Numbered from the stretch's first letter, positions 590-64,000 are shown. The stretch is DNA of 64,000 nucleotides from Vicugna vicugna (GCA_013265495.1 MU058198.1:1314419-1378418), one strand, 5' to 3'. Notes: a model not told the origin generated them from the sequence alone. Numbers and translations are program-made.

Positions 590-669
590 ACATTATTCAA
601 ATACCCCATTACCTACTTCCTTGCTGCACCCTCTGTGTTTCGAATGATTCTGCAGCAGAATCCCACCAG
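590..669 (+). CDS. ACSM1: ACSM1 coding exon ([26 protein letters not shown])
   Basis: ctag acceptor, AG|gtatgg donor; 80 bp, same size as paralogous ACSM4 exon 61029-61108. Confidence 0.9.
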
Positions 670-753
670 GTATGGTAGAAGTGGCTGTGGCTGATAACAA
701 CAATCTTTGAGTAGGACTTTAAGGAATCTGACTGTTTTTAACTCTGGTTCTTT

Positions 754-798
<45 letters not shown>

Positions 799-14200: not shown

Positions 14201-15119
14201 GTCCCTGCCCACCTGCTTGGCTCTCCCCACCCAGCACTCCTGGCGCTGCCAAGCTCTTTGGGTGTTGTCCTCAAATCCCCCGGAAGAGAAGCTGATGAAC
14301 TTTTGCCCTTAAAACCCTCAATTTCTGGAGACCCTGGGAGATCAATCATGAGAGTCAGATGGGATTTTTTCCCCGCTGCGTGTTCCTAATGTAAAGCGCA
14401 CGCTAGCAGGTGGTGGATCCAACCCCATTTCAGGTGTTCAAATGTCTAAGTCAATCAGGAATGACTTTGAGACCACACCATCTTGTCACACGAACTGGAA
14501 TTCCCAGGCCAGGAGGAAACATATTTTATTACCTTATTATCATGATCCCATAATTCAGTTCAAATATAACCTCTTTCCCTTTGGGATTTCTTCTTTCCTC
14601 ATATTTTACTTACAAAGGTGCTTCTCGATTTCCCTACATGAGAAATTCTAGTTATCTTTTTATCAGTGACTTCTAGCAGAATTACATTATCAGATACACA
14701 CTTTGTCTGATTTCATTCCTCTGAAATGTACTGAAATTTGCTTGGTGGCCAAAATAAATATCTATATGATTAGGATGGCTGGCTATTAAGGTCTTCTACA
14801 TCTTACAGATGTTCTATGTGCTTATGGTATGAGTTGTTGAGAGAGGGATGTGAAAAGCACCCCCTCTTCTTGTGTATTTGATTATTTTTGTAGCTCTGTC
14901 ATCATTCGCTTTATATGTTTTTCAGCCACTGCCAATGGGATCTTGGGGGTTCTCAAAGGAGGGAAGAGGCAGAAGTGGGGGACAGGGGACCTGGGTTGAG
15001 GAGGACAAGAAACCACAAACTCTGAAAAGGTTCCAGACAGGACCGACAGTTGGATGGCTCGTCATGGGGCATCCGGTAGGGGAGAAACATTCTAAAAGTG
15101 AGGTCATCGGGGTGTCCAT

Positions 15120-15195
15120 TGTGAGGAATGACGACGAAGGCAGGGATTGGTCGAGAGGGGGTATAAAGCCTCCGCGTTGCTATGGCATCGACCAA
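15120..15195 (+). promoter_or_regulatory. Candidate promoter of the MIA3/TANGO1-like locus
   Basis: TGACG (CRE half-site) 15129-15133, ATTGG (inverted CCAAT) 15146-15150, TATAAA 15162-15167, X-box-like GTTGCTATGGCATC 15176-15189; locally CpG-enriched. Confidence 0.5.
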
Positions 15196-18115
15196 ACAGG
15201 AGAAGGCTGGGAGGCAGACGAGTCTGTCTCCTCTAACTGCTCCTGAGAGTCGGCTTCGCCCGCTGTTTATTTTCCTGACCTGCTTACCTGCTGACCTACT
15301 GACCTGTCTGAACCCTCCTTCCTCCCCTCAAGGGCTTGGTTGACCCTCATCCTTTCTGTGACCCGCTTCTTCTCCTCCCAAGTACCCAGCCCCTCTTCCT
15401 GTTCCACTCCCTCCCCAATCCCATCCCCAACTCCAACCCCAACCCCTCCCCAACACTGTTCTTCTGGCTCCTCTTGCTGGGGTGTCCTGGGCACCAAAAC
15501 GTGGATGTGAGTAAACATCGGGCAACAGAGGTGTCCTCCCCTTCTCCTGGGCTCTTTCACACTGTGGTTAAATCACTGCTTTTTTATGGGATCCTTGATG
15601 GGAACTCATCCTTTGTGAAGACCGAGGCCCTCAGCGCAGGTTTCTTGACCAGCCTGAAGTGGCTCTGGCCACCGGCGGCCTCATCAAGACCTGGTCCTGT
15701 CAGGGCTGCTTGGACCAAACACAGGAGGGTTGACAGGATGAAACCTGGAATAGTAACTTTATTGCGTCAAAGAAGGAACTGTGAATGTCCCAAAGCCATT
15801 GAGTTGTATGCCTAAAATGGGGGAATATATGAACTATAGCCCAGTAAAGCTGTTTTTCTTTTTTTAAAGTGAGAAACTCTTATTTACTAGGAGTCATAGA
15901 GGTAGACTGGCTCCTGGAAAGCTTGTCAAGATCCTGATTCAAGCTGTACATGTTTGGGGTCCATTCCCCATGCAGTGTGTTTTCCTATAAGTACACCTTC
16001 CAACTTTGTGAAGTTTGGCAGCCCTGGGAACAGTGGTATCTAAGCACTGTGTTGGTATTAGTCTGTTAAACAGTGAAATGTCACTTTTGCTCTGTGTTTT
16101 CTGGCCCTGAGAGCCCCGCCAATGTGGAAAAAAAAAAGTGGCTTCAGCCTGTTGGGATGTTTATAACGGGGAAATGCCTGGGAGTCACGTGACCAGGAGG
16201 TGGATGAGTTGTCGCCCTTTCTTTAGTGACGTGTGCGTGTGCAGAGTGTCGATTTACCCAAAGCATAAAGGGTCCTTCTTGTCCTTAGAACTGTCCAAAT
16301 GCAAAGAAAATTTGGGATCGTGCTGTGAAAGTTTTCATTCTCTCAGGAAGAAGCACCCCCACATCCAGGAAAGAGAGAGAAAGACTGAGAACACCCCATG
16401 GATTTAAGTGGGTTTGTTCTGATCGGCCTGCACCAGATTCTTAGGGACCTGCAGAAGGCCAGTTTCAGGAACAAGCTTTGCCCTGAGGCAGAATCAACCA
16501 AAGAAGAGTCTATTCTGTTTCTTTTGAGTGTATTAAGGAGGACATTTCTAGACAATCTTTGCCGGAAATTTTTCCCTCACAGGGAATGAGGCTGTCTTCT
16601 CCTAGGTTAGTTAAGCCCTCTTTCCTACCACTTGGAGGAACTAACTTGTCCTCCTCCACCGTTGCTCATGGCCACTGACAGTCAGAACCTTAGTTTACTG
16701 GCCCCGGTGGACAGAATTTAGGTAGGAGTCAGCTACCGATGTCAGCATGTAGACAGTGCCATGGTAACAAGCATGCCCACAACTGAGGATGTTTTACCAA
16801 CTAGTGACAAGACAGTCTTTGCCTCTTTTGTGCATTTGATCTGCCCGTCTAACCCTTGTGCTGAGAGCCGCTGCTCTCATCAGACAGCAGCTACTCAAAG
16901 ACAGCACGCGTTTCCCACCAGCACACATTTTACTGAGCTCAGCTGTGAGGCAGATGAAGAAAATGTTATCGATTTCAGAAGCTACTTTCTAGAGAGGTTT
17001 TATTTGCACAAAACTGAAGCTTGGTGTGTGGACTAGTATGAATTACATTGTGAGTTAAATTTCTCCTAAAATACTTGTAAATCTAGCTTCTGTAAAAGAA
17101 TATGTTTGCCTTTGGTTTGGGTGATTATGCTATTCCAAAATTTGGATTCCTTTACAAATTAACTTTCAGGGTTACTAATTAATTGATTTAGGTACAATAC
17201 TATGAAAGGAGAATGTGAATTCTTCTTATTGGTTATTTAGAATTGTGTTTTTAACTAACTTCATTCTCATAGTTTTAATCGTAATATATAAGATCACTCT
17301 ATTGTGCAAATCTTTATGTATTTCAGAAATCTGATATTATGTGCTCTGGTTCAGAATCAAAGTGATCATTGAAAGAAAACCTCAATGGTTTTAGAAACTT
17401 GGGTTAATCAATAATTTGTAATTAGTTTTTGTTAGGAAAATAATTCTAGCTTTATTATAGTAACAGCTACCAACCTTTCTGACTTCTTTTCATATCTATA
17501 AAACATCTCTTTTTATATTATTCTCATTTGTATCTTTAACACACATATTTTAACTGTTATTTTTCCCATTCTTCCATATATTTGGGGTTTATTTTTGGAG
17601 ATGTTTCATTGCAGTTTATCCAGATACTTCATGAATGTACAATAGAAGATGTAGGTTTCCCATCTGCAATAAGTGTGTATTTACTTATTTTTAAATTTTA
17701 CGTTGCCTTATACATTTATGACTTAAGTCTTGTTAACTGTTTATGAAACAATTTGCAGTGTGTTGTCAGCAATTAAAATCTCAGTTTGTGTATGAGGTTT
17801 TTTCTACGGCATTAAGTATAATGTAATTTACATATAATAACAGCACCTTTCTAATGAATACAATCTGTTGATATCTGACAAATGCATGCAGCAATAAAAC
17901 CATCACCACATAAAGACAGTCAACCCATCCATCGCCCCGAAAAGTTTCCTCATGCTCCTTTTTAATCAATCTATCCCCTCTCTCCCCTGTGAGGAGCTCC
18001 TTGAGGGTTGTGGTTGCTGCCTGGAGGCTGGCTTAGGGTTCCTAAGGATGATTCTTCGTGACAGATAAACTGTGAATGTCTTTGAGTTTCTGTATTATCT
18101 CCGATATTATTTCAG

Positions 18116-18481
18116 ATCATCCACGTTCTGTCTGGCTTTCTCCATCTTGAGCCCGATGTGTATGGAATTCTGCAGAAGTTTACCGATAGTATTGCTGTTC
18201 TGCCTGACTTTTTCCATCTCGGGCCTGATGTCTACGGAATCCTGCACAAGTTTACCGGTATTACTGACATTCTGCCTGACTTTTTCCATCTCGGGCCTGA
18301 TGTCTACGGAATCCTGCACAAGTTTACCGCTGTTATTGACATTCTGCCTGACTTTCTCCATCTTGGGCCCGACGTCTACGGAATTCCGTGGAAGTTTACC
18401 GGTATTGCTGCCTCCTTGGGAATTTCTGCAATTCTAATTTTCTCCTGGAGGATTGTCTGTGCTGCATTACTAAAGTACCCT
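18116..18481 (+). CDS. MIA3-like exon: 4x24-aa repeat followed by transmembrane helix
   Basis: ttcag acceptor; ends with TM-like GIAASLGISAILIFSWRIVCA. Phase-0 donor CCT|gtaggt at 18482; the MIA3-homologous position (18464) reads gcatta. Confidence 0.75.
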
Positions 18482-21400
18482 GTAGGTATACTTTTAATCA
18501 AAATTAAACAGGAGACCAGTTCTACAAATTTTCCTCTGAGTACTCCTTTCACTGCACCCAATAAGTCCTATTTTCATTACTGTTTAGATTGAAATGTCCT
18601 CAGATTTCTGCTGAGTTGTCCTCCTTGACCCATGTGTTCTTTAGAAGTGTGTTGTTTAATTTCCAAGGTTTTTTTGTTGTTGTTGTTTTTTTTGTAGTTT
18701 TCCAGCTCTTCCTGTTACGGATTTCTACTCTCAATCTATTGTGACCTGAGAACATCCTTTTTATGATTACTGTTCATTTAAATTCGTTAAGCTGTATTTT
18801 ATGGCCCTGAAATATGGTCTGTCTCCGTGAATGTTCTATGTGAATCATGGATGAATCATGGATCATGGATGCTCTGCTGCTGTTGGATGAGATGTTCTGC
18901 AGGTGTCAGATCCAGCTGAGTGATGATGCTGTTCAGTTCAAGTGTATTCTTCCTGCATTTCTGTATGCTGGGTCTAGCCATAATGATGGATTCATCTATT
19001 GCTCCTAGCAATCCTGTCAGTTTTTGCCTCGCGTTTTGACGCTCTGCTGTTAATTCATATACATTAAGGACGGTTCTGTCTTCTTGGAGAAGTAACCACT
19101 TTACCATTAAAGCAATGTCTTTCATTATACCTGATAGACTATACCTCCTTACTCTCTGGTGTGTTTTGAAGGATGAGTTAACCGGCACAGAATTCTAGGT
19201 TGATGGGGTTTTTTTTAATGTTAACACTTTAAATATTTTATTCCACTTTTGTCTTGATTGCTTGGTTCCTGAAGAGAAATTTGGTGTATGTCTGTCCTTG
19301 TTCCTCTGTGGGTAAGGTGTTATTCCCCCACACCCTACCCCCAGCTTCTACCAAAATTTTTTCTTTGTCTTTGATTTTCTGTAGTTTAAATATTCTATGT
19401 TTAGATATATAATACTGGAGTGATGTGTGTGTTTACTATGTACGTATGTGTATATACATCCTTGCATTTATCCTGAGTAGAATTCTTTGAGCTTCCTGGA
19501 TCTGTGGTTCGGTGACTATCATTACTTTTGGAAAATTCTCAGTCATTATTGCCTGGAATGTTTTCTGCTTTCCTTTCTTCTCCTTTCTTCTTATTCCCAT
19601 TGTGTGTATGTTACACCTTTTGTAGTTATCCCACTGGTCTTGGATAATCTGTACTTTATCTTAAGCTTATTTTCTTTGCATTTCTGTTTAGAAAGTTGCC
19701 ACTGACATTTCTTCAAACACTGATTCTTTCCTCAGCTATGTCAAGTTTGTTAATAACTCCATCAAAGCTATTCCTCATTTCTGTGATGGTGTTTTTGATT
19801 TCTAGAATTTCCTTTGAAGCCTCAGTTTTCATCTCTCTGCTTACATTTACCACCTCTTCTTGCATATTGTCCACTTTTTTTCATTGGAGCCATTATCATA
19901 TTAATCCCAGTGGTTTTAAATTCTTGGCCAGATAATTCTGTCCTGTCATATTGAGTACAAATCAAATGCTTGCTCTTTGAGTTCAAACTGTGTGGTTTCT
20001 TCTTTTAGTGTCTTGTAAGGACTTGTTGAAAGCTGGGTGTTGCGTCATGGTACGGTGGAACTGAGGTAAGTCGGTGTTTAGTGTTTGGTTTGATATTTAT
20101 CTGGCCAGGGGTTAGGCTGAGTTTTCCCTTAGGCAAGACTGGAAGTGCGTATTTCCCTTCACCCATGCCGCCTAGTCTTTGGCAGAACCCCAGTTAGGCT
20201 CTGGTAAAACTGTTTCTCTTGAGGGCAGGCATTTTTTAGAAGAACAGAACATGATGAGTTTATTTTTAAATGGCTATGTCCTCCCTCTCCCTGCCAACAG
20301 CCTGAGGTGGCTTTTCTCCCCAATATTTGCTGTGAGAATCTGTTAGGATTCTGAAGATAAAACTGACAGAAGGATGGGAGCCCCCTAACACTGGGCACCC
20401 TGGCATTTTTAAATCTCAGTCTTGTCCACACCGGGCCTCCAGGACTTCATCAGTTACCGTGTGTAGGTTTTCCTATCGTGGTTCTCTGGTCCCTGCAGAG
20501 ACTTCCGACCTCGGGCTTCTGCTCCCGTAAGTGGTATTGCCGGTATCTGCCAGGCTTTTTCTCAAATTGCAGCAACCCTTTGCGCTGTGACATCAGTTCT
20601 CTGAATGATGTATGAAGAGCTTTTTGATTCTCAGTTTTTCTGTCTTGTTATGTGGGCGGGAGTGACAATTTCCAGGCTCCTTAAACGCTGGACTTGAATC
20701 CAGCAGTCTAGCTCTTTCGTTGTTTCCTTTTGGATTACTAACTTAACACATAAATTAATGTCTGAAATGGAAGTTAACGCTGCAAAATACTCTGTTTTTG
20801 ATAAAGAACTCACTGAGCAAGACAATATATTCTCAATGAGAAAAATACAATTTATCAATTCTTCTCTTAGAAAATAGAAATAATAATTATTTGGTGAGCC
20901 CGACTCTCTTCCCACGTGCTCCTGCCTGTGGATTGGGTGACAAGGGACAGAGAAGCTCAGTGTTCCCTGAGCAACATGTGAAGTTGAGGGAGTAGCCGTG
21001 ATATTCTGTTTGCCCTCTATGGATGCATTTTTCTATAACCGCATTATTACCGCTGGATTTTTGACACTGTCATGATATTCCAGTATCTTGGGAAGTTTGG
21101 GGGGCTAGCCTCAGTATCTGATCATGGTCTAAACTTTTGAATAGAGAAATATGTAGAGATCAGGAAAATATGTCTTTACATGGTATTAAAATGAGGTCCT
21201 GCCTGGATTGTATTGAGCTATAATTCATCAAATGATGACTTGAGTCTGGGAAGCAAGCATTTTTTGCCCTTCCTTGAAATGTTAGCTCTCCTTTCTGCTG
21301 TGCTTGTATTTTTTTCTCTAGCCATCTCCTGCTTTGTTTCTCATTTGAGGATGCTCTATTATCAGTGTTCTGGAAAAACAAGAGGCTCTATTGCAATTGT

Positions 21401-24400: not shown

Positions 24401-27400
24401 TTTGTGAGCTCTTTGACCATGAGCAGTTTTTCACCTTTGCTTTCCCCTTGTCATCCAGCCCTCTTTTCCATTATCCAGTGAGGAAGAAGTTTGTGGAAGC
24501 TAGAAAATCTTGTGCCTGAAGGTCTTCCTTAGTGTTATATTTCATTATGGGCTTGGCATTTGTCCTGGGCCCAACCTGGATCAGCTACCATCACAGGAAA
24601 CTTAGGGGTAGCTGTGCAGTATGTTTGGTTTATGATACATCTTTTGAGCTGATCACCCTGAGTTTCCATTGAAATCTTAGTACATTTTTATTTGTTTGTT
24701 TCTATCCTACGTGAAAATATTGGGAACAGGAAAATCTACAGAGAACTTGAAAGCTGGTGTTTCAATGAACACCTCGGGCATTTCAGGGGTAAGCTACCTA
24801 TATTTGCTACAGGATTTCGTTTTACACATTAGCTTTCACGAGGAACAAGTGTTTCATCTCTGATTAAAATGATATCTACTTGGGATTTTTCTTCTTGGGA
24901 ATTAAGTCACCAATGAGAATGTTTTGCTTTAGGTTAAAACTGCCCTTAGTGAAGCTTCTGTCAGTGGAATGAAAGTGAAATCTGGAGACGTGAATGTTCA
25001 CAAGGGGAATGTTCAATTCAACGTCAAGAGGCAGCAGGTAACAAATATTACACCCACCCCCAGATTACTTAAATCAGAGAACTCAAACTCATTAATTCCT
25101 TTTCCACTTTTAACTGTGCTGTAATGCACATAATATCAAATGCCCCGTCTTCACCATTTTAAGTGCGTGATCTTCCTTTGTTAAGTAATTCACATTGTTA
25201 TGCATTATTACTACTTCCTTTTTAAAAAAAATTTTTTTTAATCATTACTTCTTGAGTATCTGTTCTCATATCTGTCTTATAGTCACAAGATGCCAATGCT
25301 GAATTTGAGGATTCGGAGCTGAGCACATCTCTCAAAAGACTCAACCTGGAAGGTATGTTGTTTGTTGGGAAGAAGTACCCGCATCATGAAATGAGTCTGC
25401 CTGGGGAAGGCAAGGAATGCTTCCTGCCTTCAGGGCTCCTCCCTCCTCTTTCCCCCCACCTCAACCAACCTCTTCGGTCCCTGTGCACAAAGAAATCTCC
25501 TCCTTCACAGACAAGAAGAAGAAGCTGAAAGACAGCTGTGAGGCACTGAGGGCTGAGAAAGTGATGAAGGAGGCGGAACTGAAAATGCTGAAGGAGAACA
25601 TAGACAACCTGGTTGGAGTCTACGAACAACGAAAAATGGCTGCCGAAGAGTAAGATATTCACGGGTTAATTGTTCCAGATACCGTTGTACGAAGTAATGT
25701 GTCAACCAATGTAGATGACCATAATTTACTTCAGAATAGATTCCAGAGTATATTTATGCCAGATTCGTCCAGTGCAGAATTGTGCCCGCTCTTCCCACCT
25801 TGATTTCTGTAGTCTCTGGATCCATTTAGATTGTCCTTTAGGTTTCAGTCCCATCACATTATCTCGCCCAGTCCCATGTCAAGTCATATTCTGTTCCACC
25901 TTCAACAGCTTACAACACAGCCGCTCCATGAGAGCCACTCCAAAGCATTTGCTGACGGATTGCCTGGGAGGCCAGACAGAAATGCATGTACCTTTCTCTC
26001 ATTAGTGCTTTTGTCCTTGTTGGTAGAACGTTTTAATTTTGCAGGTGATTCCTTAGAAAATCATTATCAGATGAAAACCCTTTGAATCAGAGCCATGAAC
26101 AAAATAGTCTGAGGGCAGCACTGCATATCAGTTATTTTTGAAGCCATGGCCCTTTGCTGCCTTCACTCTCAACAAACTCAGGCTTGTTCAAGTAGGTTGA
26201 CACCCTGAAGTCGACAGTTTTCCATCTGAAATCTGTTTCCTGGAGGTGATACCCTGACTGTGTGACAGTTCACATCATTTTATAATTCAGTAGATACTGC
26301 CAGCACTAAGATTTCCCTTTTTTTTTTTCCCTCTAGGATATTTGAATAAGAGGTAGGGATTCTACTTTTGAATGGTGGAAATGTCAGGTAGTTAATTGCA
26401 GGGTGCCAGTGAAGCCATATCCTGGAAGACTCTCTTTAGCTGACTGTGTCAGGACACAGCCTTGGATTGAGAGTCAGGGCTCCCGGTGGATTGTAAAATT
26501 AATTTTGATGCCTTGCTTTATCCTAATATGTTTAGCTGTGATGAGTTGGCCAGGCATCATTTTCCACATTGAAACAAAATGAGCCTTCACCACCTCAAAC
26601 ACAAGACTGATCGTGGGAGGTCACAAAATGCTTTTGTATTTGATGACTTTATGATGAAGAGATAGGAGTAGAGAACTCTAAGAGGCACTCAGACTACAGA
26701 GGAGTTGCTAGCAGGTCAAAGTTTGTTTTTTCTTTATTCCTAGATGGGGGGCTTCAATTCATTCCTCTGTGTTGTCAGTCTATGCGTGGATGGGGCAGGG
26801 TGAGGAGGGGCATTTGAATCTCAGCCTTCAGACTCCTGGGAGGTAAGGAAGGCATAATTTCCCACTGGCTACTGGACAATGTCTATATCTTTTTTGCATC
26901 TTAGGAAATTGAAAATCAAAAAACATAACCTGATGGAAAAGGAGAGTGAGCTGTCAGCTATGAAGGAAAATCTGAAATCAGTTTCAGAAGAAACGCTCAA
27001 GTACAAGTAAGTTCAGATACTAAACACCAGCAGCTCGTGAAACTGCTTTTGACTTGTTTTTAACTATTGTACAATGTTTAGAATGAATTAACGTAGTAAT
27101 ATAAACAAAAGTTTAGAAGACATATACATAGAGAATTAACAGAAGAAAAACAAAGTTTCTACAAAGAACAAACAAAGTAAGTCACTAAAAATTTCCTGAT
27201 CCCCAAGTGCTGGCCAGATTGTGTGCAAACCTAGTTCGTGCAAACGTCATGTAAACTGTCATAGCCTTTAGAAAAGAAGTTTGTTGTAGAAAGAATCACA
27301 TCCATTAATATAATAGTGTTACTTCATGGACCTAGTTTTTGCAACCCAGGGAAATACGGTAAGGATGTAAGTACAAAGCAGATAGAGCTTTAGGATAAAA

Positions 27401-30400
27401 GTCATTCATCGCACAGTGAATTAGAGAAAATGTTCAAATTTGTGTGTGGGAATGATATCTGCTCAGAACCCTGTGGGCATTAAGTAATAAATCTGGAAGC
27501 ATGTAGCCATAGCTTTGCTCCTATTGTCCCTTTATAACCAGGTGAGAAGTGTTTTATGTGTGTGAGTATATCATATTAGGGGGCATTTGTGAGGATAGCA
27601 GGAATTTGGGCAACTAGTAAAATCATACTCAAGGTAAAGCTTTATCTGATGAAAGCGATTGTAACTCACAGGCAACAACAGGACCAAATACAAGAACAGC
27701 TGCAGCGGGCGGAGAATCTCTACAGATTCCAGGTAACCGGCTTCCCGCCCACGTCACCGCATCAGTGAGCCCCTGTTGCGGCTGACATAAGGGCCCTGAG
27801 AATCCCTAATTCAGGGGGACTTATTGACGTGTTGGCTTTTTCAGATCTGTGTTTGTGAAAAGAAGGCTCAAGACAACTGGGTAAGCTTTTCTTTCTCCCT
27901 CTTTCTCTCTCTCTCTCTCTCGCTCACTCGCTCGCTCCTTCTTTCTGTTCACAGTCTGCCGCAGCTGAACTTGGGTGTTTTCCTTCCACAGATCAAGAGT
28001 CGGATTTTGGAGAGGGAGTTGGAGAAGCAGAGACGGGAAGCCGCCTACTGGAAATATAGGTATGGGGTTTTGAAGAGCACTTTTTAAGGGTGTTTTTAAG
28101 AGGTGTTTAGGCTAAGCCATTTGGTGTCTGGTAGAGGACTGTGTTGGAACCCTTCCTGAAGTCCATTCTTTTTCTATATTCAAGACTGGAAATGATGGAA
28201 AGAAAGAAGCAAGAAGAGAGATACTGGATGAATAGACTGATGCAGGGGAGACCTGAGCTGCAGAACCACCCACAGAGAGGTAAGGAACACATTGTGAAAC
28301 CACTTAATTTCTGCTGCAAAACCACACCACGTCGCTCTTGCTCCCACGGGCGATGATTGTGTTGCCTGGAAAGGGTCCCAAGTGCTTACGAAAGACAACA
28401 GGTTGTCTCAAGGGATGACAGGAAGATGTTTTCCTCAGGTTCCCCAGCCAGAATGACTCCCTGGGCCTGTACCCTGTGCTTGGTGGGGCTCATGCCCTGC
28501 CACTGACTGAAGACCCTCTCCATCCCCCGCAAGGGCCCCGACCTTGAATTCCTCTGACTGAAAGATCTGGGCCTAGAGGCTGAGTGGGTCCACGCTTTCT
28601 TCCCACCTTGAGAATAGGGGGAAGAATTTATTCTTTCTTATTAGAGAAAAAAGGCATTTATTATTGTTCTTTCTTCTATTTCCTTTATTCTATTTTTTTA
28701 ATTTTTTTTATTGTGGACTAGGCATTCCACCCATAATTTACATTTCTGTACAATTTCACTCCTCTTACATTATCAGTGTGGCATGACAACTTGACTATTA
28801 AACCCCATAGCTCTCCTTTTCTCAAAACTGGAATATTAGTCTAAGTCCATTTCCTTTCATAAATACTTATATAGTGACTGGTCACATGTGCAAGGCAGCT
28901 TATACAGAGAGTGACAGATTGAAAAATCGCTGTGTCCTGAAGAAAAGGACTTTTTTGCTGTTCATGCTGATGTTTCTTGATTTTCTTCCTATCCAAGGCT
29001 ATTCTCATTTTAGTTTTTAATCTGTGATGAAATTGTGGTTTCTCCTGATGTGTATTGGGAAACCACTGTTTGGTTGTTGATTTCCAGCTATTTGAGCACT
29101 GAGCTGGACACGATTGGTTGATGAGTTATGAAAATATATGACTCTAGGCCCTATGGTGTCTTCCGCAAGGTCTTGCCCTCATCCTTGGAGTCACCTGATG
29201 CCTGGGGGAAACCCTCTGCCTCTGGTAACGGACCTGAGAGCGGGAACAAAGTGTAAATGGTGGGAGAGGCTTGAAGTGTGATTTTCCTTCCACACAGTCT
29301 TTGCAAGTTGGAATAAACCTCCATCGCTTCTCCTTTATCAGGTTCAGGACCTGGTGCAGCTCCTGGGAGGAATGGCAGCTCCTTCCCTCCCGAGGAGGCA
29401 AAGGAGGCCCAGGTAAATGTTGTGGTCATTTTCAATTGTAACTATTTCTGGGGACTTTTTAATCTTTTTTTTTTTTTTACAGCACCCTTTCCTGGCCCTG
29501 TTTTTAAATTATGTTCTTTGTGATATGTTTACAATGTCANNNNNNNNNNNNNNNNNNNNNNNNNNNNNNNNNNNNNNNNNNNNNNNNNNNNNNNNNNNNN
29601 NNNNNNNNNNNNNNNNNNNNNNNNNNNNNNNNNNNNNNNNNNNNNNNNNNNNNNNNNNNNNNNNNNNNNNNNNNNNNNNNNNNNNNNNNNNNNNNNNNNN
29701 NNNNNNNNNNNNNNNNNNNTGTGTTTTTTTTTTTTACAGCACCCTTTCCTGGCCTTGTCTCTAGATTATGTGCTCTGTGATATGTCTACAATGTCATGGC
29801 TGTTCAGATTCAAACTCTTGCCCAAGAGTCAGTGGGCTTCTGCCTTCAGCCCGTTACCTTTGGTGGTGCCTACAAAAGCCGTCAGTGCTTAGAGGCTGAG
29901 GACCACAGACTCTCACAGTGTGTTTCTCGAAATAGCATTACACCTCACTCCACACTTGCTTCTAGCACAGCTGACTCCTTCCTGACCTCCTTCACTTGCA
30001 ACAGCTCCTGGGTCACTGAGACAGATTATCACCATCATTTTGCTCCTTTCCTGGTTCAGGTTTAGGTGATTCTCCTGTTTAGAATGTTTATTCTAATCCT
30101 TACAACTGGGAAATGAGAAAAGCCCTCCCCCCAGCTTTATGATGTGTGCTTTGTGCAACTTTGAATCTTCTTGGATATAGTACCTTTCATAACCCATCAC
30201 TGTCTTTTCTTGGTAGGTAAATGTGTCTTCCACACTCCCTCCAGCTGTACACTTGGTAGAAAAGCCTGAATCTCAGAGATGTTGTATTTGTAGCAGAAAA
30301 TATACCCTGGAAGCGAAATAGCCCGGAGGGAAAACGCCTAATTCCCTGCAGGGCCGATTCCCACCACAGTCTTTACACTGTGTTCCCGTAAGCAGGGTCG

Positions 30401-31352
30401 GTCCTGCCCTGAAGCTGTTACAGCCAGTCCTTTAACTCATCACACATCGGGGGATTTTACTCATGACATAAAACCACTTTTGTGTTAGTTGTGGAATTTA
30501 AACGTCCCACTTTGCTTTGCCATAGGACAAATTTAGTCTGTACCTCAGAGTGAACTTAAAATTCAGATTGACCTGTGAAAAAAGATGATTGGAGCTGAGC
30601 CTAATGACCTCCTGTAGGCAACATTGTTCCCTCAGGAGCACTTTTCCCAGCTTCCCTGCAGGACTCCAGGATCCCCATCTCCCCAGAGGTCTTTGCGCCC
30701 AGGGGCAGCCCCTCCAGGGAGGAGAAGAGCCCTTTGTCAGGAGGGAGGCAGAGGAGGGCCGGGCAGGGGCCTGCAGGCAGAGCGAGCACCCAGGCGCGGC
30801 TCTGATTCCACGTGTGAATCACGGGCCCTCGCGTCCTCTCTTTCTCTGTGTTCCTAGTCCACAAAGAGCAGGCTTCTGTGGACCTGGTGAAGGAGGGGGA
30901 GGGCTGTCCTGCACAGAGAGGCTGACTGCTGGGAAGGTGCTACTTTATCAGTTTGCTGGTATCTCTGTTCATCCTCTAGGGCAGGACCCTTGCTTTTCTC
31001 GGCTTACAGACACAGGCAGTGACAGTGTCTTTTCCTCGTGGCCTCCTGTGCAGCCCAGGCTGCAGGCAGGACCCAGAGGGATGGGTGGAGTGTGTGGCAC
31101 TGAGCTGCTCTCTGGGAGCCTGGTGGAGGGGAGGAGGGTGCCAGGTGCTGACAGATGCTGCATTGGGTTTCAGCTTTTGTTGATGTTGGCGCTTCTGTCT
31201 TTCATACCAACACACCTCTAACTCCTGTTCTGCAGGTCAATATGGATGCAAGAGGGCCCCCTCGTTTCCGAGGACCACCCGGCATGCCTGACTACATGGG
31301 CGGCCCTTCACCATTTGTGGGCTATGGGCCATCTCCACCTGGATCACACTGA
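18116..31352 (+). CDS. MIA3/TANGO1-like (TANGO1-short-type) intron-containing duplicate; diverged gene or unprocessed pseudogene
   Basis: Exons 18116-18481, 21917-21938, 23419-23507, 23760-23831, 23921-24031, 24933-25037, 25283-25352, 25511-25649, 26905-27006, 27672-27732, 27845-27880, 27992-28059, 28185-28279, 29342-29412 and 31236-31352 join without a stop (~507 codons). They match MIA3 in order and peptide: GPDVYGIPWK..LIFSWR ~ GPDFYGLPWK..AIFLWR; ESKKH..MLSDEA; EKKAQDNW ~ EKKAHENW; VNMDARGPPRF ~ [11 protein letters not shown]. No start codon identified. Confidence 0.8.
18119..18406 (+). repeat. Coding tandem repeat, 4 copies of a 72-bp unit
   Basis: IHVLSGFLHLEPDVYGILQKFTDS / IAVLPDFFHLGPDVYGILHKFTGI / TDILPDFFHLGPDVYGILHKFTAV / IDILPDFLHLGPDVYGIPWKFTGI. 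Confidence 0.92.
18500..20710 (-). mobile_element. Old LINE-1 (L1M) fragments in a MIA3-like intron
   Basis: Antisense ORF2-like remnants (ORF 18856-19188 '...TVLNVY...AIDESII...LELNSIITQLDL') and an L1M 5'-end-like segment near 20640-20710; bounds approximate. Confidence 0.7.
21917..21938 (+). CDS. MIA3-like 22-bp microexon (VKPPKNQ)
   Basis: cctag acceptor, G|gtaaga donor; corresponds to MIA3 VKDRVYQ. Confidence 0.75.
23419..23507 (+). CDS. MIA3-like exon (VNVQQIPEKTDNIKEKITEHSENMSISKQK)
   Basis: tttag/gtatta; corresponds to [30 protein letters not shown]. Confidence 0.8.
23760..23831 (+). CDS. MIA3-like exon (TAESKKHGHKTTRHNKMLSDEALK)
   Basis: cacag/gtaaaa; corresponds to [24 protein letters not shown]. 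Confidence 0.82.
23921..24031 (+). CDS. MIA3-like exon (GNIKTIEKADKHSNGVPESTPATPPSVRGQNVKNPKA)
   Basis: gaag/gtaaga; corresponds to DKIKTLEKNQEILDD...EQNVKNQDL. Confidence 0.8.
24717..24788 (+). pseudogene. MIA3-like 72-bp exon with mutated acceptor (AA instead of AG)
   Basis: ILGTGKSTENLKAGVSMNTSGISG ~ [24 protein letters not shown]; preceded by gtgaaa; donor gtaagc intact. Confidence 0.7.
24933..25037 (+). CDS. MIA3-like exon (VKTALSEASVSGMKVKSGDVNVHKGNVQFNVKRQQ)
   Basis: tttag/gtaaca; corresponds to [35 protein letters not shown]. Confidence 0.8.
25283..25352 (+). CDS. MIA3-like exon (SQDANAEFEDSELSTSLKRLNLE)
   Basis: atag/gtatgt; ends NLE-G like the MIA3 TQTAISVV...TKCNLE-D exon, but shorter. 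Confidence 0.7.
25511..25649 (+). CDS. MIA3-like coiled-coil exon (DKKKKLKDSCEALRAEK...YEQRKMAAEE)
   Basis: cacag/gtaaga; corresponds to DQVKKLEDDRNSLQAAK...YQQKEMALQK. Confidence 0.82.
26905..27006 (+). CDS. MIA3-like coiled-coil exon (KLKIKKHNLMEKESELSAMKENLKSVSEETLKYK)
   Basis: ttag/gtaagt; corresponds to [34 protein letters not shown]. Confidence 0.82.
27672..27732 (+). CDS. MIA3-like exon (QQQDQIQEQLQRAENLYRFQ)
   Basis: cacag/gtaacc; corresponds to [20 protein letters not shown]. Confidence 0.78.
27845..27880 (+). CDS. MIA3-like exon (ICVCEKKAQDNW)
   Basis: tcag/gtaagc; TANGO1/cTAGE signature EKKAHxNW. Confidence 0.85.
27992..28059 (+). CDS. MIA3-like exon (IKSRILERELEKQRREAAYWKYR)
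   Basis: cacag/gtatgg; corresponds to [23 protein letters not shown]. Confidence 0.82.
28185..28279 (+). CDS. MIA3-like exon (LEMMERKKQEERYWMNRLMQGRPELQNHPQR)
   Basis: caag/gtaagg; corresponds to LLELTQK...MPGKPNTQNPPRR. Confidence 0.8.
28439..28587 (+). pseudogene. Degenerate MIA3 proline-rich-domain exon
   Basis: Homologous frame SQNDSLGLYPVLGGAHALPLT (~[21 protein letters not shown]) is offset by 1 nt from the spliced frame. Stops at 28504-28506 (spliced frame) and 28545-28547 (homologous frame). 3' end approximate. Confidence 0.7.
29148..29224 (+). pseudogene. Degenerate MIA3 proline-rich-domain exon
   Basis: tag/gtaacg, 77 bp (not 3n); PHP and SPDAWGKPSAS (~PHPRWSAEASGKPSPS) lie in different frames. 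Confidence 0.65.
29342..29412 (+). CDS. MIA3-like exon (GSGPGAAPGRNGSSFPPEEAKEAQ)
   Basis: atcag/gtaaat; phase 1 to 0; corresponds to [27 protein letters not shown]. Confidence 0.68.
29540..29719. other. Assembly gap (180 N)
   Basis: Run of N flanked by near-duplicate ~70-bp sequences. Confidence 0.99.
31236..31352 (+). CDS. MIA3-like proline-rich exon with early stop (VNMDARGPPRFRGPPGMPDYMGGPSPFVGYGPSPPGSH*)
   Basis: tgcag acceptor; corresponds to [35 protein letters not shown]; TGA 31350-31352; donor gtaag at 31376. Confidence 0.8.
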   Translation, partial: VNMDARGPPRFRGPPGMPDYMGGPSPFVGYGPSPPGSH

Positions 31353-33539
31353 TGCCCTGTGACCTCACCTGCTGGGTAAGATGATCTAAGGAGTATGATG
31401 GGCTGGTTATTTCCCCACACTAAGCTGGGCATCAAGAGTTCCTTGCAGAGAAGGAAAGAAGCTTTAAAGATACAAGGTCAAAATACCAGTTGTGAAATGT
31501 GCATTTAACATAGACCACATGCTGAGTCTGTGTGGGAGGAGGCATACTCCTGTGTTCAAGGGTTTAAGGTGATTCAGCCGAGAGAGGAACCCATTACTGA
31601 TACTGAGCTTGTGATCACCGTAACAGAAGTGCCAATAATGGGCCCTAAGTACAAAAGAGGGACAAGTGAATCACATGGGAGTGAACAGGAAGTTGTGGAA
31701 GAGAAGGAAGAAATCGAGGAGGTGCCCAGTGGAGGTCTGTTGGATTCACTTAGATGGAGCTGGAAGGTCATTTCCGGCAGGGCGGGCAGTTGGGGCGGGA
31801 CGTGTGAAGGCAGCAGGAGGTCCACGCAGAGCCACGTGTGTGTGCAGGGGACTCAGTGCGGCCGTGCAGTTGTCCCCATCAGCACCCGCTGCTGCCAGAA
31901 AGCCCTCAGTTCACAATCTCATATAAAGTTGATTGTGTCCTTTGGATTTCTGAAAGTTCTAGATCTGGGTGAAAGAATGCCCTGGGGTTTTGGGGAGTTT
32001 CACTTGGTTCTTTCAGGATATTTTGTGTCCCTGAACTTTATTATGCCCCCGTGATTAGTAAGAGCAGCCAGGATCCAGATCGGCTGAGCAGCTGCCTTCA
32101 CCTTTAGCATGAGGCAGTTTCGCTGGGGGAAGTCAAGGGTGATCAGGGGACCCCAGGAGGACCCCCTCCCCAAATGTCAGCTCTGCATCTCCCATGTTTA
32201 AGCACAATTTCCCAACTCTTTGTTTTCGTTCCTACTCTTCAGTCCCTAATACCGAGACTCAGTGGGACCTCCATAGAGCTTCAGTTTCCTTATCTTTGAA
32301 AAGTGAATAATATTGGTTTCTGACATCATTGTGAGGAAGACAAGATTAAGTACATGAATTATTCTGTAAAATGGCGGAGACATACTGGGCACTCACCATT
32401 CTCATAATGTAAAGTAAAATGTTTGCACACAGAAAATCATCAAAAGATGTTCTTGAAAGTGCATTAAACTGAGCTAAGGATATAACAGCTCAGTCCCAGA
32501 GATAAGTAATCTCTGTTTCAAAAGATAAGGCAAAGACCCCCTTTCTTCTATTAAAATTCAAGTCCTACCAGTTGAAGAAGAAAAATATAATTATGAGAGC
32601 GTGTAAATTCAGAGATCAGTAACAGGGACCTGAAGATAGTCACCATTCATTCCATATAGACACAGAGATGCAGCCACGCACTAAAGGGCTCATCAGAGAC
32701 CCCAGATATAGAAGACAAAATGCGTATTGGAAAAAATAAGACCGTACTGAAAAACCCCAATCTTTTTACCTTACAGGCAATCAGCTTGAAGCTTGAAGAG
32801 GACCCTGAGCTGTGGCAATGATATATTCAGAGAAGATGCCAAATGTGCATTATGGCCCAAATGTTTCCCTGCTCAGTCCTGCTCCCCCCCAACTATTGTC
32901 TCTCCTATTGTCACCCCTAATAAACCTGTCACTGTTCTATCTCTGTCTAGCGTCTGCTTTTTGGAAAACCAGCTGATGCTCCATCTGGAGTGTACACAGT
33001 GAGATTCCTATAGACAAGGTTCAAAACCAGGCTGAAAAATGGTGCTGGAGGCCAGCCACAAGGACAGGCACTATGGTTAGTATTGACTGCAGACGAGCCT
33101 GAAGGAGTCTTATGTTGGTCGGGAGGAATATCCTATATCTGGATATATGTGATGTTTGTGCTAATTTATTTGAGAAACATTCTGCTGTCTGTCAGTCAAG
33201 GAATGCCTCATGATCAGACAGACAGGTATCTGTCCCCAGGAATTGGCTGATTTCTAACAGTAGGGAAGGATGAGGGGCCAGCCGTGGCAGCGGGGAACCA
33301 GTGAGAAGGTCCCACAGCAGATCATGCAAAACAGTGCCCTTGTCCCAGGAATCCAGCTCTCCCCAAATCCAGGAGGGCTTGCTCACCTGGGAACAGAGAT
33401 TTCTTGATAAGCCCTGTGAACTTCTTAACCCTCTGCAATTACCTTACGAGAGATGGGCAGGTCAGATGGTGGTGAGGGCCGCCTGAACAAGGCTGGGGGG
33501 AGCAGGAGGCTTGTGGCCTTGTGTTAGGGAGGGACAGGC

Positions 33540-63796: not shown

Positions 63797-64000
63797 GTAC
63801 AAGAATGTAGAGAACACGCTATTCACATTTTAATAAAAAAAAAAAAAGGTGGTGTAGGGAGTCATATAGACTTGGGTCCAAATTTCATATCCACCATGTT
63901 TTGCTGTGTAACTTTGGGCAAGTCACAAAATCCAAGTCTATTTCATCAGCTGTAAAAATGCAAAGAATATCCTCTCTCTCCTAAGGGTTTTTGCAAGATT

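Follow-up and report, generated by a model that had tools for sequence, protein, structure and literature searches.

The described systems closest to the locus treated here are TANGO1 (MIA3) with its short form TANGO1S (TANGO1-short), the primate CTAGE genes, the primate NPIP ("morpheus") genes with their LCR16a core duplicon, and a set of short genes of ruminants, carnivores, horse, rabbit and xenarthrans, which RefSeq names 'transport and Golgi organization protein 1 homolog' and earlier named 'melanoma inhibitory activity protein 3-like'. In TANGO1, the PPP motifs of the proline-rich domain engage Sec23. CTAGE copies are intronless and derived from MIA2, and ape NPIP proteins carry a C-terminal repeat and are largely devoid of coiled coil 2 and the proline-rich tail. 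In published work, the ancestral primate NPIP locus is placed at 16p13.1, outside the ACSM cluster, and the NPIP copies of dog are reported to evolve neutrally, being 'indistinguishable from neutral'. The two copies in dog are on chr6, next to an 'ACSM2A duplication', and ACSM duplicons are present at the lemur locus (Cantsilieris 2020). The 'MVKL' start exon of NPIPB has been traced to ACSM1 exon 12, and a signal-peptide start has been described (2025 preprint).

How, then, does a locus of Vicugna vicugna compare with these systems? We analysed a stretch of 64,000 nucleotides (hereafter, the window), and its locus is probably the camelid copy, at a conserved site 3′ of ACSM1, of an old placental gene which was born by DNA-level duplication of MIA3/TANGO1 and which we read as the non-primate counterpart of NPIP/morpheus. 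The window gene is a genuine, predicted-spliced and quickly evolving MIA3/TANGO1 derivative present beside ACSM1 in many placental mammals. It is neither camelid-specific nor unannotated: RefSeq already annotates alpaca XP_072798195-7 as 'transport and Golgi organization protein 1 homolog', giving three isoforms, and XP_072798196 (P0001) is also titled "uncharacterized protein"/"TANGO1 homolog". This alpaca protein was found via the ORF of exon 2 and then mapped exon by exon onto the + strand. After refinement of boundaries, the gene has 15 coding exons between 15453 and 31352 (+), and all of its 14 introns are GT...AG introns with pyrimidine tracts. The exons encode 490 codons and a TGA without any internal stop, with three differences from residues 5-494 of P0001. 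An intron-containing TANGO1/MIA3-like gene, as proposed by the initial annotation, is thus found at the locus; the ~507 codons given there are close to the refined count, and its 18 exons are accounted for by the coding exons, a cassette exon and MIA3-like relics. Four such decayed relics, one of SH3 origin, were detected by tblastn within the gene span, which reads as follows.

15453-15506 (+): exon 1, a signal-peptide-like segment (TLFFWLLLLGCPGHQNVD), with no in-frame ATG upstream in this assembly
17582-17665 (+): relic in intron 1, the decayed last SH3-domain exon of MIA3
18116-18481 (+): exon 2, four in-frame 24-residue repeats (LPDFFHLGPDVYGILHKFT...), then a single membrane helix
21917-21938 (+): exon 3, micro-exon VKPPKNQ, counterpart of ruminant VKPPVYQ and of VKSRVYQ in TANGO1-short
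23419-23507 (+): exon 4, coiled coil 1
23760-23831 (+): exon 5, coiled coil 1
23921-24031 (+): exon 6, a proline-rich, non-helical stretch in place of TANGO1 coiled coil 1
24732-24791 (+): relic exon absent from the alpaca models, with weak collinear tblastn matches to TANGO1-short 187-206 and reindeer 173-189
~24933-25037 (+): cassette exon of isoform X1 (529 aa), 105 nt and in frame, 100% identical to P0235 residues 243-277
25283-25352 (+): exon 7, mapped from the alpaca protein
25511-25649 (+): exon 8, where coiled coil 2 begins
26905-27006 (+): exon 9, mapped from the alpaca protein
27672-27732 (+): exon 10, from boundary refinement
27845-27880 (+): exon 11 (ICVCEKKAQDNW), mapped from the alpaca protein
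27992-28059 (+): exon 12, mapped from the alpaca protein
28185-28279 (+): exon 13, where coiled coil 2 ends
28446-28589 (+): decayed proline-rich-domain exon with 2 stops, in no model (tblastn to TANGO1-short 540-583, E 0.025)
29173-29232 (+): MIA3 relic just 5′ of exon 14, in no model (tblastn to TANGO1-short 589-608)
29342-29412 (+): exon 14, from boundary refinement
31236-31352 (+): exon 15, a short remnant of the proline-rich tail and the TGA, aligning to TANGO1-short 632-667

The repeat of exon 2 has a period of 72 in 3.9 copies with 85% matches at 18126-18406 (Tandem Repeats Finder). The SH3 relic was recognized by tblastn against intron 1 alone, a search space of 2.6 kb, with E values of 5e-5 for a rabbit protein of the family (P0100), 4.5e-4 for P0022 and 0.003 for hamster MIA3 (P0066). 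The initial annotation had seen neither an SH3 nor a large lumenal exon: the latter part stands, as the large lumenal exon of MIA3 gave no match at the locus, while the former has to be amended by this relic.

The gene lies between two ACSM genes, as had been noted from the start, with ACSM1 upstream and another ACSM paralogue downstream.

590-11004 (+): 3′ exons of ACSM1; alpaca ACSM1 (P0258) maps to 590-11001 in 8 segments with a mean identity of 91%
9322-9444 (+): penultimate coding exon of ACSM1, with a phase-0 end and the donor AAG/gtgagt
10915-11004 (+): last exon of ACSM1; the last two coding exons are 97-98% identical to alpaca
52263-63799 (+): second ACSM-family gene, represented by its 5′ and middle exons, 51-54% identical to ACSM1, ACSM2B and ACSM5

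The downstream gene is 59% identical to a pigeon protein named Acsm4 and 78% to a fused model of argali (P0253). The window gene starts 4.4 kb downstream of ACSM1 on the same strand, and the ACSM1 donor at 9444 shares phase 0 with the acceptor of exon 2. Models in which ACSM1 exons are joined to exons of the family exist in Camelus ferus (P0002), pangolin (P0255) and argali (P0253), and thus the position adjoining ACSM1 is common to these species.

It is to be noted that the 5′ end of the gene is peculiar. No coding sequence for MEVK, the first four codons of the alpaca models, is present anywhere in the window, and there is no in-frame ATG upstream of exon 1 back to the stop at 15309-15311. 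Two features occupy this region.

14764-15452 (+): 5′ flank common to dispersed camelid copies and start of the duplicated unit (blastn, 73-75% identity to copies on C5988 and C11423)
15404-15454 (no strand): C-rich microsatellite that abuts exon 1 at the expected site of the ATG (Tandem Repeats Finder)

In the alignment with the copy on C11423, extra repeat units appear at the microsatellite together with a 14-nt gap over the ATGGAGGTGATGGG of that copy. The gene may therefore be broken in this genome, or the assembly may be wrong at the start codon. Among the alternatives to a maintained gene, the one that survives best, although we consider it unlikely, is that the locus has only lately become an unprocessed pseudogene, in which a small deletion at the microsatellite removed the start codon while the frame is still open and its decay is pending. 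The absence of both MEVK and an ATG, and the fall of the gap exactly on the start codon of the paralogue, speak for such a loss, but the lesion sits in a low-complexity tract, which is a frequent site of assembly errors. Moreover, the 14 pairs of splice sites are all intact, and the RefSeq protein, for which three isoforms are given, is matched at all but three residues. In-frame read-through from ACSM1 is possible, and an upstream ORF starting with MASTKQEK, like the start of a buffalo isoform, might serve as an alternative start. Conversely, the identity between the camel and alpaca proteins, ~93%, does not exceed that of the adjoining ACSM1, and the published neutrality of the dog copies agrees with disablement. 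In simulations, the frame was kept in 19% of neutral replicates at K=0.03, so that a young loss would be invisible.

Over a longer period, the same kind of simulation gives a different picture, since at K=0.16 the frame stayed open in 0.04% of 5000 neutral replicates. Compared with two of the dispersed copies, dN/dS is 0.63 (bootstrap 0.43-0.88; 226 codons) and 0.57 (bootstrap 0.39-0.82; 249 codons), and pN is lower than pS in 5 of the 6 pairs formed by the four repeat units of exon 2. Judged from these sequence comparisons, the constraint appears to be weak (dN/dS ~0.6 against the dispersed copies, a value that would also suit a disabled gene), although the frame has long been kept open. Both simulations and dN/dS agree with the initial view of a sequence strongly diverged yet open, unlike the product of long neutral decay. 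The gene would then have evolved fast under weak constraint, with a frame open for tens of millions of years, and in camelids a unit of ~20 kb has also spread by copying to many other sites.

From what was the gene copied? Its collinearity with TANGO1-short of mink (P0030) is seen in three ordered BLASTP segments of 92, 97 and 40 bits with 32-49% identity, and exon-by-exon tblastn agrees from the membrane exon through both coiled coils to where the proline-rich domain begins. In a maximum-likelihood tree of 52 rows and 495 columns, the family is supported at 100/99, and its union with mammalian MIA3 at 100/100. This genome carries its true MIA3 on C10886. BLASTP and the tree thus agree with a DNA-level, intron-bearing duplicate of MIA3 and not of MIA2/CTAGE, as was first proposed. 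Like TANGO1S, the gene runs from a GPDxYGxPW pre-membrane exon through a VKxxxYQ micro-exon and coiled coils 1 and 2 to the start of the proline-rich domain, and is predicted to encode a type I protein with one membrane helix and long cytosolic helices. Unlike MIA3/TANGO1, it has neither an SH3 domain, apart from the relic, nor the large lumenal exon. In contrast to TANGO1S, it misses the middle part of the coiled-coil region, its proline-rich domain is reduced to ~60 residues, and a signal-peptide start of its own takes the place of the TANGO1S first exon. It also evolves far faster, as alpaca and reindeer proteins are 46% identical while TANGO1S of mink and badger are 95% identical, two comparisons that differ in time depth. 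A TANGO1-short unit had been regarded as the sole source, but the signal-peptide exon and the SH3-exon relic mean that the source included the 5′ part of MIA3 as well.

The same tree shows how widely the gene is distributed. The family of 29 rows, which is placed beside mammalian MIA3, includes xenarthrans, tree shrew, lemur, rabbit, horse, carnivores and artiodactyls, its tree roughly matches the species tree, and the window gene clusters with three ruminants at 95/81. The RefSeq 'TANGO1 homolog' genes are its orthologues or co-orthologues, with a MEVKxLLFWLLLL start, the same exon order and a length of 311-636 aa (reindeer, 496 aa). The camelid gene differs from them in that the pre-membrane unit is present four times instead of once as in ruminants, exon 2 is extended by 6 codons to a new donor, coiled coil 1 is broken by the proline-rich stretch, and the stop comes ~20 codons before that of reindeer. 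Three features are specific to camelids: the fourfold 24-residue repeat, at least nine further intron-containing copies elsewhere in the genome, and the loss, in this assembly, of the annotated ATG. The many extra copies and a repeat seen only in camelid proteins might suggest a camelid or otherwise lineage-specific duplication of TANGO1-short, close to the initial annotation, that landed in the ACSM cluster by chance. Such an event is very improbable, because orthologues that share its signal-peptide start and its order of exons are present in ruminants, carnivores, horse, rabbit, lemur, tree shrew and xenarthrans, because pangolin and argali have the gene at the same ACSM1-adjoining site, and because the source was larger than TANGO1-short. 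Of the uncharacterized, lineage-specific family envisaged at first, membership in a family holds, while the family spans many placental mammals and matches the NPIP entry of Pfam, and NPIP orthologues with adjoining ACSM sequence have been published for dog.

Derivation from MIA2/cTAGE5, as for the primate CTAGE genes, is hardly credible in spite of MIA2 clusters ranking first (0.95) in a feature search of the ESM Atlas and of an EKKAQDNW motif found in MIA2 and MIA3 alike, for it is contradicted by the tree, in which MIA2 forms a separate clade at 100/100, placed behind several starred branches, by BLASTP, in which MIA2-short gave 77+45 bits against 97+92+40 for TANGO1-short, by the true MIA2 locus lying elsewhere, on C10971, and by 14 introns where CTAGE copies have none. 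The CTAGE family is similar as another lineage-specific expansion of a TANGO1-family gene without the lumenal part, but the window gene is no retrocopy of this kind, being MIA3-derived with introns that the other camelid copies also keep.

Then, why can this gene be connected to NPIP? P0001 matches the Pfam profile NPIP (PF06409) with 30.1 bits (E 5.4e-7), above the gathering cut-off of 27.5 bits, residues 95-215 covering profile positions 1-124. The cut-off was reached in 5 of the 13 proteins of one scan and in 9 of the 26 of another, while TANGO1-short scored only 17 bits and MIA2-short not at all; neither the lemur (0/2) nor the dog (0/2) family proteins matched. A difference from NPIP is that the score of the window gene comes mostly from the membrane exon, since the last repeat unit and the membrane helix of exon 2 alone give 29.8 bits, and the true MIA3 membrane exon of this genome fits better with 45.8 bits. 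Coiled coil 2 alone gives 13.6 bits (E 0.059), and, without the membrane exon, a protein of Bos indicus (P0013) reaches 44.3 bits at profile positions 62-206. In the protein search, no NPIP appeared among the 120 of 568 matches listed, all of which were ACSM proteins.

The second line of evidence is the neighborhood. The window gene is 3′ of ACSM1, the published NPIP loci of dog and lemur have ACSM sequence at their side, and the start of human NPIPB is a copy of ACSM1 exon 12; the window gene, flanked by ACSM1 and another ACSM gene, may share its neighborhood with the dog copies at their 'ACSM2A duplication', provided that these correspond to the dog family protein P0020. Taken together, the Pfam matches, the adjacency to ACSM1 and the published ACSM links in dog and human lead us to see in this locus what corresponds, in camelids, to the NPIP progenitor. 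Further similarities are quick, near-neutral evolution with an ORF remaining open, a ~20 kb unit copied widely as in marmoset and apes, and a signal-peptide start of the form M-x-V/L-K/R-R..., for which the NPIP side consists of only the four letters MRVR/MRLR (2025 preprint). On the other side, the published ancestral primate site is 16p13.1, and the likeness is to the Pfam profile and to published descriptions of NPIP.

What kind of protein would the gene encode? It seems to have retained the exons for the signal peptide and the membrane helix, the two cytoplasmic coiled coils and a proline-rich stub, while the SH3 and large lumenal parts were lost. Hydropathy peaks at residues 121-136, and in the AF2 prediction residues 112-141, 154-217 and 249-421 are helical, with pLDDT of 78-97 in the third segment, whereas pLDDT is below 50 at 215-252, the proline-rich break in coiled coil 1. 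The product may be a membrane protein of type I topology, residing in the ER or nuclear envelope, whose short lumenal stalk would consist of the four 24-residue repeats in camelids, and whose long cytosolic helix could remain able to pair with TANGO1-family coiled coils. Modelling lends weak support to pairing with coiled coil 2 of MIA2, for which a raccoon-dog protein was used as a stand-in partner: ipSAE was 0.47 in 3/3 runs, while the best of three controls, which need not be coiled coils, gave 0.00. At least 97% of contacts agreed between runs, with partner pLDDT of at least 84. Of 78 solved complexes, 51 reach this mark, as do 2 of 108 mismatched pairs; with scores of 0.60 or less, no more than 5 of the 78 solved complexes reach it, as do all 4 passing mismatches (of 180).

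P0001 has no match to Pfam SH3_2, which is found in the MIA3 proteins P0040, P0049 and P0066, and its tail of ~60 residues contains no PPP motif, compared with one in reindeer and seven in TANGO1-short. Without an SH3 domain, cargo would not be bound, and without Sec23-type triple-proline motifs in addition, the protein would at most modulate ER exit sites, or would have acquired another function. By analogy with monkey NPIP, the testis is probably a candidate site of its action. Apparently, the family to which the gene belongs corresponds, outside the primates, to their NPIP ("morpheus") genes.

The stop-free frame at 18086-18592, built on a 72-bp unit (3.9 copies, 85% match), retrieved two proteins when used as a query: P0001, a 494-aa alpaca protein (XP_072798196) named 'uncharacterized protein', and P0002, a Camelus ferus model of 786 aa that fuses ACSM exons to the same gene, hereafter the family gene. 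P0001 aligns to the plus strand of the window one exon after another, and the refined model has 15 exons at 15453-31352 with GT-AG borders in 14/14 introns, encoding 490 codons plus a stop, with three positions unlike residues 5-494 of P0001. RefSeq holds three isoforms of the alpaca gene.

Features of the family gene locus (window positions)
15453-31352, plus strand: family gene, 15 coding exons
18116-18481: exon 2, the membrane exon (pre-membrane repeats and membrane helix), skipped in isoform X3 (P0234, 407 aa)
21917-21938: exon 3, a micro-exon
24732-24791: MIA3-like piece, absent from all models
about 24933-25037: 105-nt cassette exon, added in isoform X1 (529 aa)
28446-28589: MIA3-like piece with two stops, absent from all models
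29173-29232: MIA3-like piece, absent from all models

Since the refined exons, the cassette exon and the extra MIA3-like pieces are all found, the initial annotation, which had seen 18 exons, fifteen of them in one open frame, was right in its exon count, and its open frame of ~507 codons is closely borne out by the 490 codons of the 15-exon model. In X3, the signal-peptide exon is joined straight to the micro-exon (exons 1 and 3); having no membrane exon, its whole coiled-coil part would enter the ER lumen or leave the cell, a topology opposite to that of the main form. The terminal exon of the Camelus ferus model corresponds to 29797-29889. The single N run of the window (29540-29719, 180 bases, in intron 14) has near-duplicate sequence on both sides within 29417-29800, the reading FFFLQHPFLAL...CDM.TMS being present before and after it, a pattern suggestive of either a small tandem duplication or a join made in assembly. 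RNA runs from a 'reproductive system metagenome' study hold 0.16-0.22 of the sampled words of 21900-31400, and other RNA or possibly-RNA runs 0.05-0.15; neither is expression evidence.

From which parent did this gene come? In BLASTP, P0001 matches P0030, the TANGO1-short of mink, in three collinear segments (92, 97 and 40 bits), and P0105, the MIA2-short of raccoon dog, with 77 and 45 bits. HMMER against all cluster representatives gave 312 proteins at E<=0.001, of which 131 reach E<=1e-10 and 26 reach E<=1e-30. For the trees, 54 proteins were hand-picked from 249; the careful tree (52 rows x 495 columns, with rabbit_c P0085 and P0152 left out beforehand) recovers a short family of 29 rows, which holds the family gene, with support 100/99 and joins it to mammalian MIA3 at 100/100, while the MIA2 clade (9 rows, 100/100) is placed apart. 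The genome has its true MIA3 locus on C10886 and its true MIA2 locus on C10971; the former lies at G000:C10886:5314200-5324100 on the minus strand and has the first exon of TANGO1-short. MIA2 clusters in the ESM Atlas (0.95) are a lead only. An origin from MIA2/CTAGE is rejected on the BLASTP scores and the tree, and because the best matches are to MIA3 instead, the derivation of the family gene from MIA3 stands on sequence comparison. A retrocopy reading is rejected for this gene, which has 14 introns.

How much of the parent was copied? Exon 1 encodes a signal-peptide-like segment, and at 17582-17665 intron 1 contains what is left of the SH3 domain's last exon, now decayed. Searched within 2.6 kb, rabbit P0100 matches this remnant at E 5e-5, P0022 at 4.5e-4 and hamster MIA3 at 0.003; proteins of tree shrew and rabbit, and P0022, still read the exon. 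Of the large lumenal exon no trace was found, the first 730 residues of MIA3 P0049 giving 0 matches. Thus, of the view that neither an MIA-SH3 nor a large lumenal exon is visible, the lumenal half holds and the SH3 half gives way to the remnant; exon 1 and this remnant also mean that more was copied than the TANGO1-short unit to which the duplication had been ascribed. The dog protein P0020 matches 17580-17630 (plus strand) with the SH3-relic exon in another frame, ILGIVLEMFQRSLPTHF against IWGLFLEMFHCSLSRYF in the window (E 0.008); in canids the old SH3 exon is re-used out of frame.

Alpaca ACSM1 (P0258) maps to 590-11001 on the same strand as the family gene in 8 segments (mean identity 91%); its last two coding exons are 97-98% identical, the last one lying at 10915-11001, and the family gene starts 4.4 kb downstream. 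From 52263 on lies a second ACSM paralogue, with 51-54% identity to ACSM1, ACSM2B and ACSM5 and 59% to a pigeon protein named Acsm4, in a comparison set without any named mammalian ACSM3 or ACSM4. The placement between ACSM1 and ACSM4 is therefore sound for ACSM1 and for a downstream ACSM paralogue, with ACSM4 as a candidate name only. Both the Camelus ferus model and the pangolin 'ACSM1-like isoform X2' (P0255) splice the ...YPRK of ACSM1 to the membrane exon, the argali model P0253 runs in the order ACSM1, family exons, downstream ACSM gene, and the donkey isoform P0019 has an ACSM-like peptide at its start. A read-through of this kind would keep the frame in the window, where donor (9444) and acceptor (18116) share phase 0. 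The window, Camelus ferus, pangolin and argali have this location next to ACSM1 in common.

The short family includes ruminants (reindeer, deer, ibex, sheep, cattle, buffalo), carnivores (dog, fox, raccoon dog, bears, mustelids, seal, cat), and also horses, rabbit, mouse lemur, tree shrew, tamandua and sloth. Its usual RefSeq name is 'transport and Golgi organization protein 1 homolog', an older one 'melanoma inhibitory activity protein 3-like'. P0003, the reindeer member (496 aa), begins with MEVKRLLFWILLL, comparable to the alpaca start MEVKTLFFWLLLL, and has an identical exon order; the careful tree places the window gene in a group with three ruminants (95/81), and the short-family tree roughly follows the species tree. 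A camelid-only gene is rejected by these relatives across placentals and by the shared position beside ACSM1. The initial annotation had suggested an uncharacterised, lineage-specific family; members from ruminants to xenarthrans, the grouping with ruminants and the shared position speak against the second adjective, and the Pfam NPIP matches and published dog NPIP copies next to ACSM sequence, given below, partly against the first. It is a real gene whose parentage was correctly called, but an annotated member of an old placental family. Among titles and abstract openings, no literature dedicated to this short TANGO1-homolog family was found.

Some changes are peculiar to camelids. The pre-membrane unit has four copies in alpaca and wild camel and a single one in ruminants and in the dispersed copies described below, with pN < pS in 5/6 unit pairs; exon 2 is 6 codons longer, reaching a new donor, and coiled coil 1 is broken by a proline-rich stretch. 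A scan of the whole genome (2.03 Gb, 12,405 contigs) found family-type membrane exons at 9 more places (C1485, C5988, C5737, C10921, C2456, C5378, C11423, C4041, C5264) and other family exons on at least four further contigs (C1468, C3778, C11644, C6005), these counts being lower bounds. Both dispersed loci that were examined have multiple exons and stay collinear with window positions 14764 to past 33000; over 19.3 kb they share 83% identity, and in alignable non-coding DNA (9.6 and 10.4 kb) each is 74% identical to the window. A search of the genome with P0001 found almost only its own exons, the dispersed copies being too diverged for exon-by-exon detection. In the tree, alpaca and dromedary paralogues form one clade (100/100), whose order relative to carnivores and to window-plus-ruminants is unresolved. 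The N-terminal exons (residues 2-104) of the alpaca paralogue P0012 are unrelated to TANGO1, carry stops in many copies, and are spread over far more contigs than the TANGO1-like exons are, with tandem copies on C10921; their sites include C5988:292374-294488, C10921:11932247-11941455, C6615, C10545, C10948, C6695, C5483, C8945, C9305 and C12397. The dispersed copies thus sit in a larger multi-copy amplicon with pieces of another gene.

It is to be noted that the MEVK start of the alpaca models is absent from the window locus: ATGGARGTNAAR occurs nowhere in the window, and no in-frame ATG lies between the stop at 15309-15311 and exon 1. Aligned to the C11423 copy, the window has extra C-rich repeat units and a 14-nt gap over the ATG of that copy. 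The missing start may be allelic, may distinguish the species, or may reflect a misassembled microsatellite. An ORF at 15185-15343 (plus strand) beginning MASTKQEKAGRQT resembles the N-terminus of the buffalo isoform P0016 (MASSKQEKTRRKT), whose reading goes on through to the membrane exon; lying upstream of the missing ATG, this ORF could serve as another start.

Is the frame kept by selection? Over alignable exons, which are the better conserved half of the gene, dN/dS between the window and two dispersed copies is 0.63 (bootstrap 95% 0.43-0.88; 226 codons; dN 0.39, dS 0.63) and 0.57 (0.39-0.82; 249 codons), each value being a mean over both lineages, one of them possibly dead. Alpaca and Camelus ferus share about 93% identity in the family protein (152/164) and 93% in the neighbouring ACSM1 protein (364/390); alpaca and reindeer share 46% in the family protein, and alpaca and hippopotamus 82% in ACSM1.

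Neutral simulations of a 490-codon frame (5000 replicates, substitutions only)
K=0.03 substitutions per site: frame open in 19%
K=0.05: 6.4%
K=0.10: 0.7%
K=0.16: 0.04%

We read the constraint on the family gene as weak; long-term selection for the open frame appears to be visible, and the last few million years lie beyond these data.

The AF2 model, made with 32 aligned relatives, consists of isolated long helices (mean pLDDT 61.6): 112-141 (membrane), 154-217 and 249-421 (pLDDT 78-97), with residues 1-111, repeats included, below 50 and a disordered tail. Hydropathy gives a single membrane segment, so that, with the signal peptide, a lumenal N-terminus and a cytosolic C-terminus are predicted, as in TANGO1. 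In complex prediction, coiled coil 2 with that of MIA2 reached ipSAE 0.47 in 3/3 runs (best of three controls 0.00), where the ipSAE mark is reached by 51/78 solved complexes and 2/108 mismatches, and at <=0.60 by only 5/78 solved complexes but by all 4 passing mismatches of 180. Contacts agree by >=97% between runs with partner pLDDT >=84; alignments were unused and the MIA2 partner came from another species. The prediction weakly suggests that the two coiled coils pair. PPP motifs engage Sec23; TANGO1-short has seven and the family protein none, and unlike TANGO1 it has no SH3 domain. Therefore it cannot couple cargo to COPII as TANGO1 does. The protein would be a coiled-coil protein anchored in ER or nuclear-envelope membranes; its probable site of action is testis, where it may take part in TANGO1-family assemblies or modulate them.

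Can this family be related to NPIP (morpheus), the primate gene family of the LCR16a core duplicon? To our knowledge, NPIP has had no known function since 2001. The comparison was made with its Pfam profile (PF06409) and published descriptions. Among 13 family proteins, 8 match at E<=0.01 and 5 reach the 27.5-bit cut-off; among 26 proteins, 11 match at E<=0.001, 9 are at or above the cut-off, and 15 have no match, including lemur (2), dog (2), four alpaca paralogues, MIA3 and MIA2. P0001 scores 30.1 bits and the window membrane exon by itself 29.8, the best match of the genome being the membrane exon of its own MIA3 (about 46 bits, 45.8); these controls weaken the match of the window protein. 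Placed collinearly in the profile, the window's coiled coil 2 by itself scores 13.6 bits (E 0.059). The score of whole TANGO1-short is no more than 17 bits; without the membrane exon, Bos indicus P0013 has 44.3 bits over profile positions 62-206, and rabbit P0100 has 45 bits over positions 3-166; thus the later part of the profile favours the short family over MIA3. The ESM Atlas cluster 'TGO1 protein (Fragment)' (0.94), with Pfam NPIP on 77% of its 161 members, is a lead only. A search with the ACSM1-exon-plus-repeat region of the camel model gave P0001, P0002 and ACSM proteins, and no NPIP, among the best 120 of 568 matches.

In the literature searched, no paper naming both NPIP and TANGO1 was found. 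One study gives an NPIP-MIA3 similarity of 16-27% (Bekpen et al., 10.1101/116087). According to Cantsilieris et al. (PMC7419210), the ancestral primate NPIP locus is 16p13.1, dog has an NPIP orthologue with largely conserved gene structure, and evolution was neutral-like for at least 70 My with ancestral testis expression. Their Figs S14-S15 describe two unannotated dog copies at canFam3 chr6:24.59-24.90 Mb with 'an ACSM2A duplication adjacent to NPIP', and an ACSM2A/ACSM5 duplication at the lemur locus. A 2025 preprint traces the 'MVKL' start exon of NPIPB to ACSM1 exon 12, and reports an 'MRLR' signal-peptide start of NPIP, an 'MRVR' start in other primates, and NPIP without deep homology (10.1101/2025.02.04.636496). 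We infer that the window locus would show the ancestral arrangement and NPIP would be the primate branch of the short family.

The joint reading, to which we give not quite an even chance, is that the interval from ACSM1 to the next ACSM gene keeps the ancestral home and form of NPIP, and it has four further parts. In the placental ancestor, NPIP would have begun immediately downstream of ACSM1 as a full-length TANGO1 copy that lost its lumenal part. Human NPIPB starts with an ACSM1 exon, and this start would be left over from splicing that ran on from ACSM1 to the membrane exon, a join annotated in camel and pangolin, and not an independent duplication. The 'novel' human signal-peptide start would be the original first exon of the short family. 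Finally, the ~20-kb unit would have spread independently to at least ten camelid sites, a second, non-primate core-duplicon-like case, and something intrinsic to the locus would promote interspersed duplication.

For camelid annotation the gain is modest: an 'uncharacterized protein/TANGO1 homolog' gains a family and a history, and its changes specific to camelids are listed. Of wider value is the bearing on NPIP, and the interest of the locus lies in the origin of that family and the independent camelid spread of the unit. If the short family is indeed non-primate NPIP, NPIP would come from an organiser of ER exit sites that has signal peptide, membrane helix and coiled coils of the TANGO1 type, a descent that would suggest concrete localisation and binding experiments; the human ACSM1-derived exon and signal-peptide start would receive a simple historical explanation, and the camelid spread would offer a non-primate test of locus-driven interspersed duplication.
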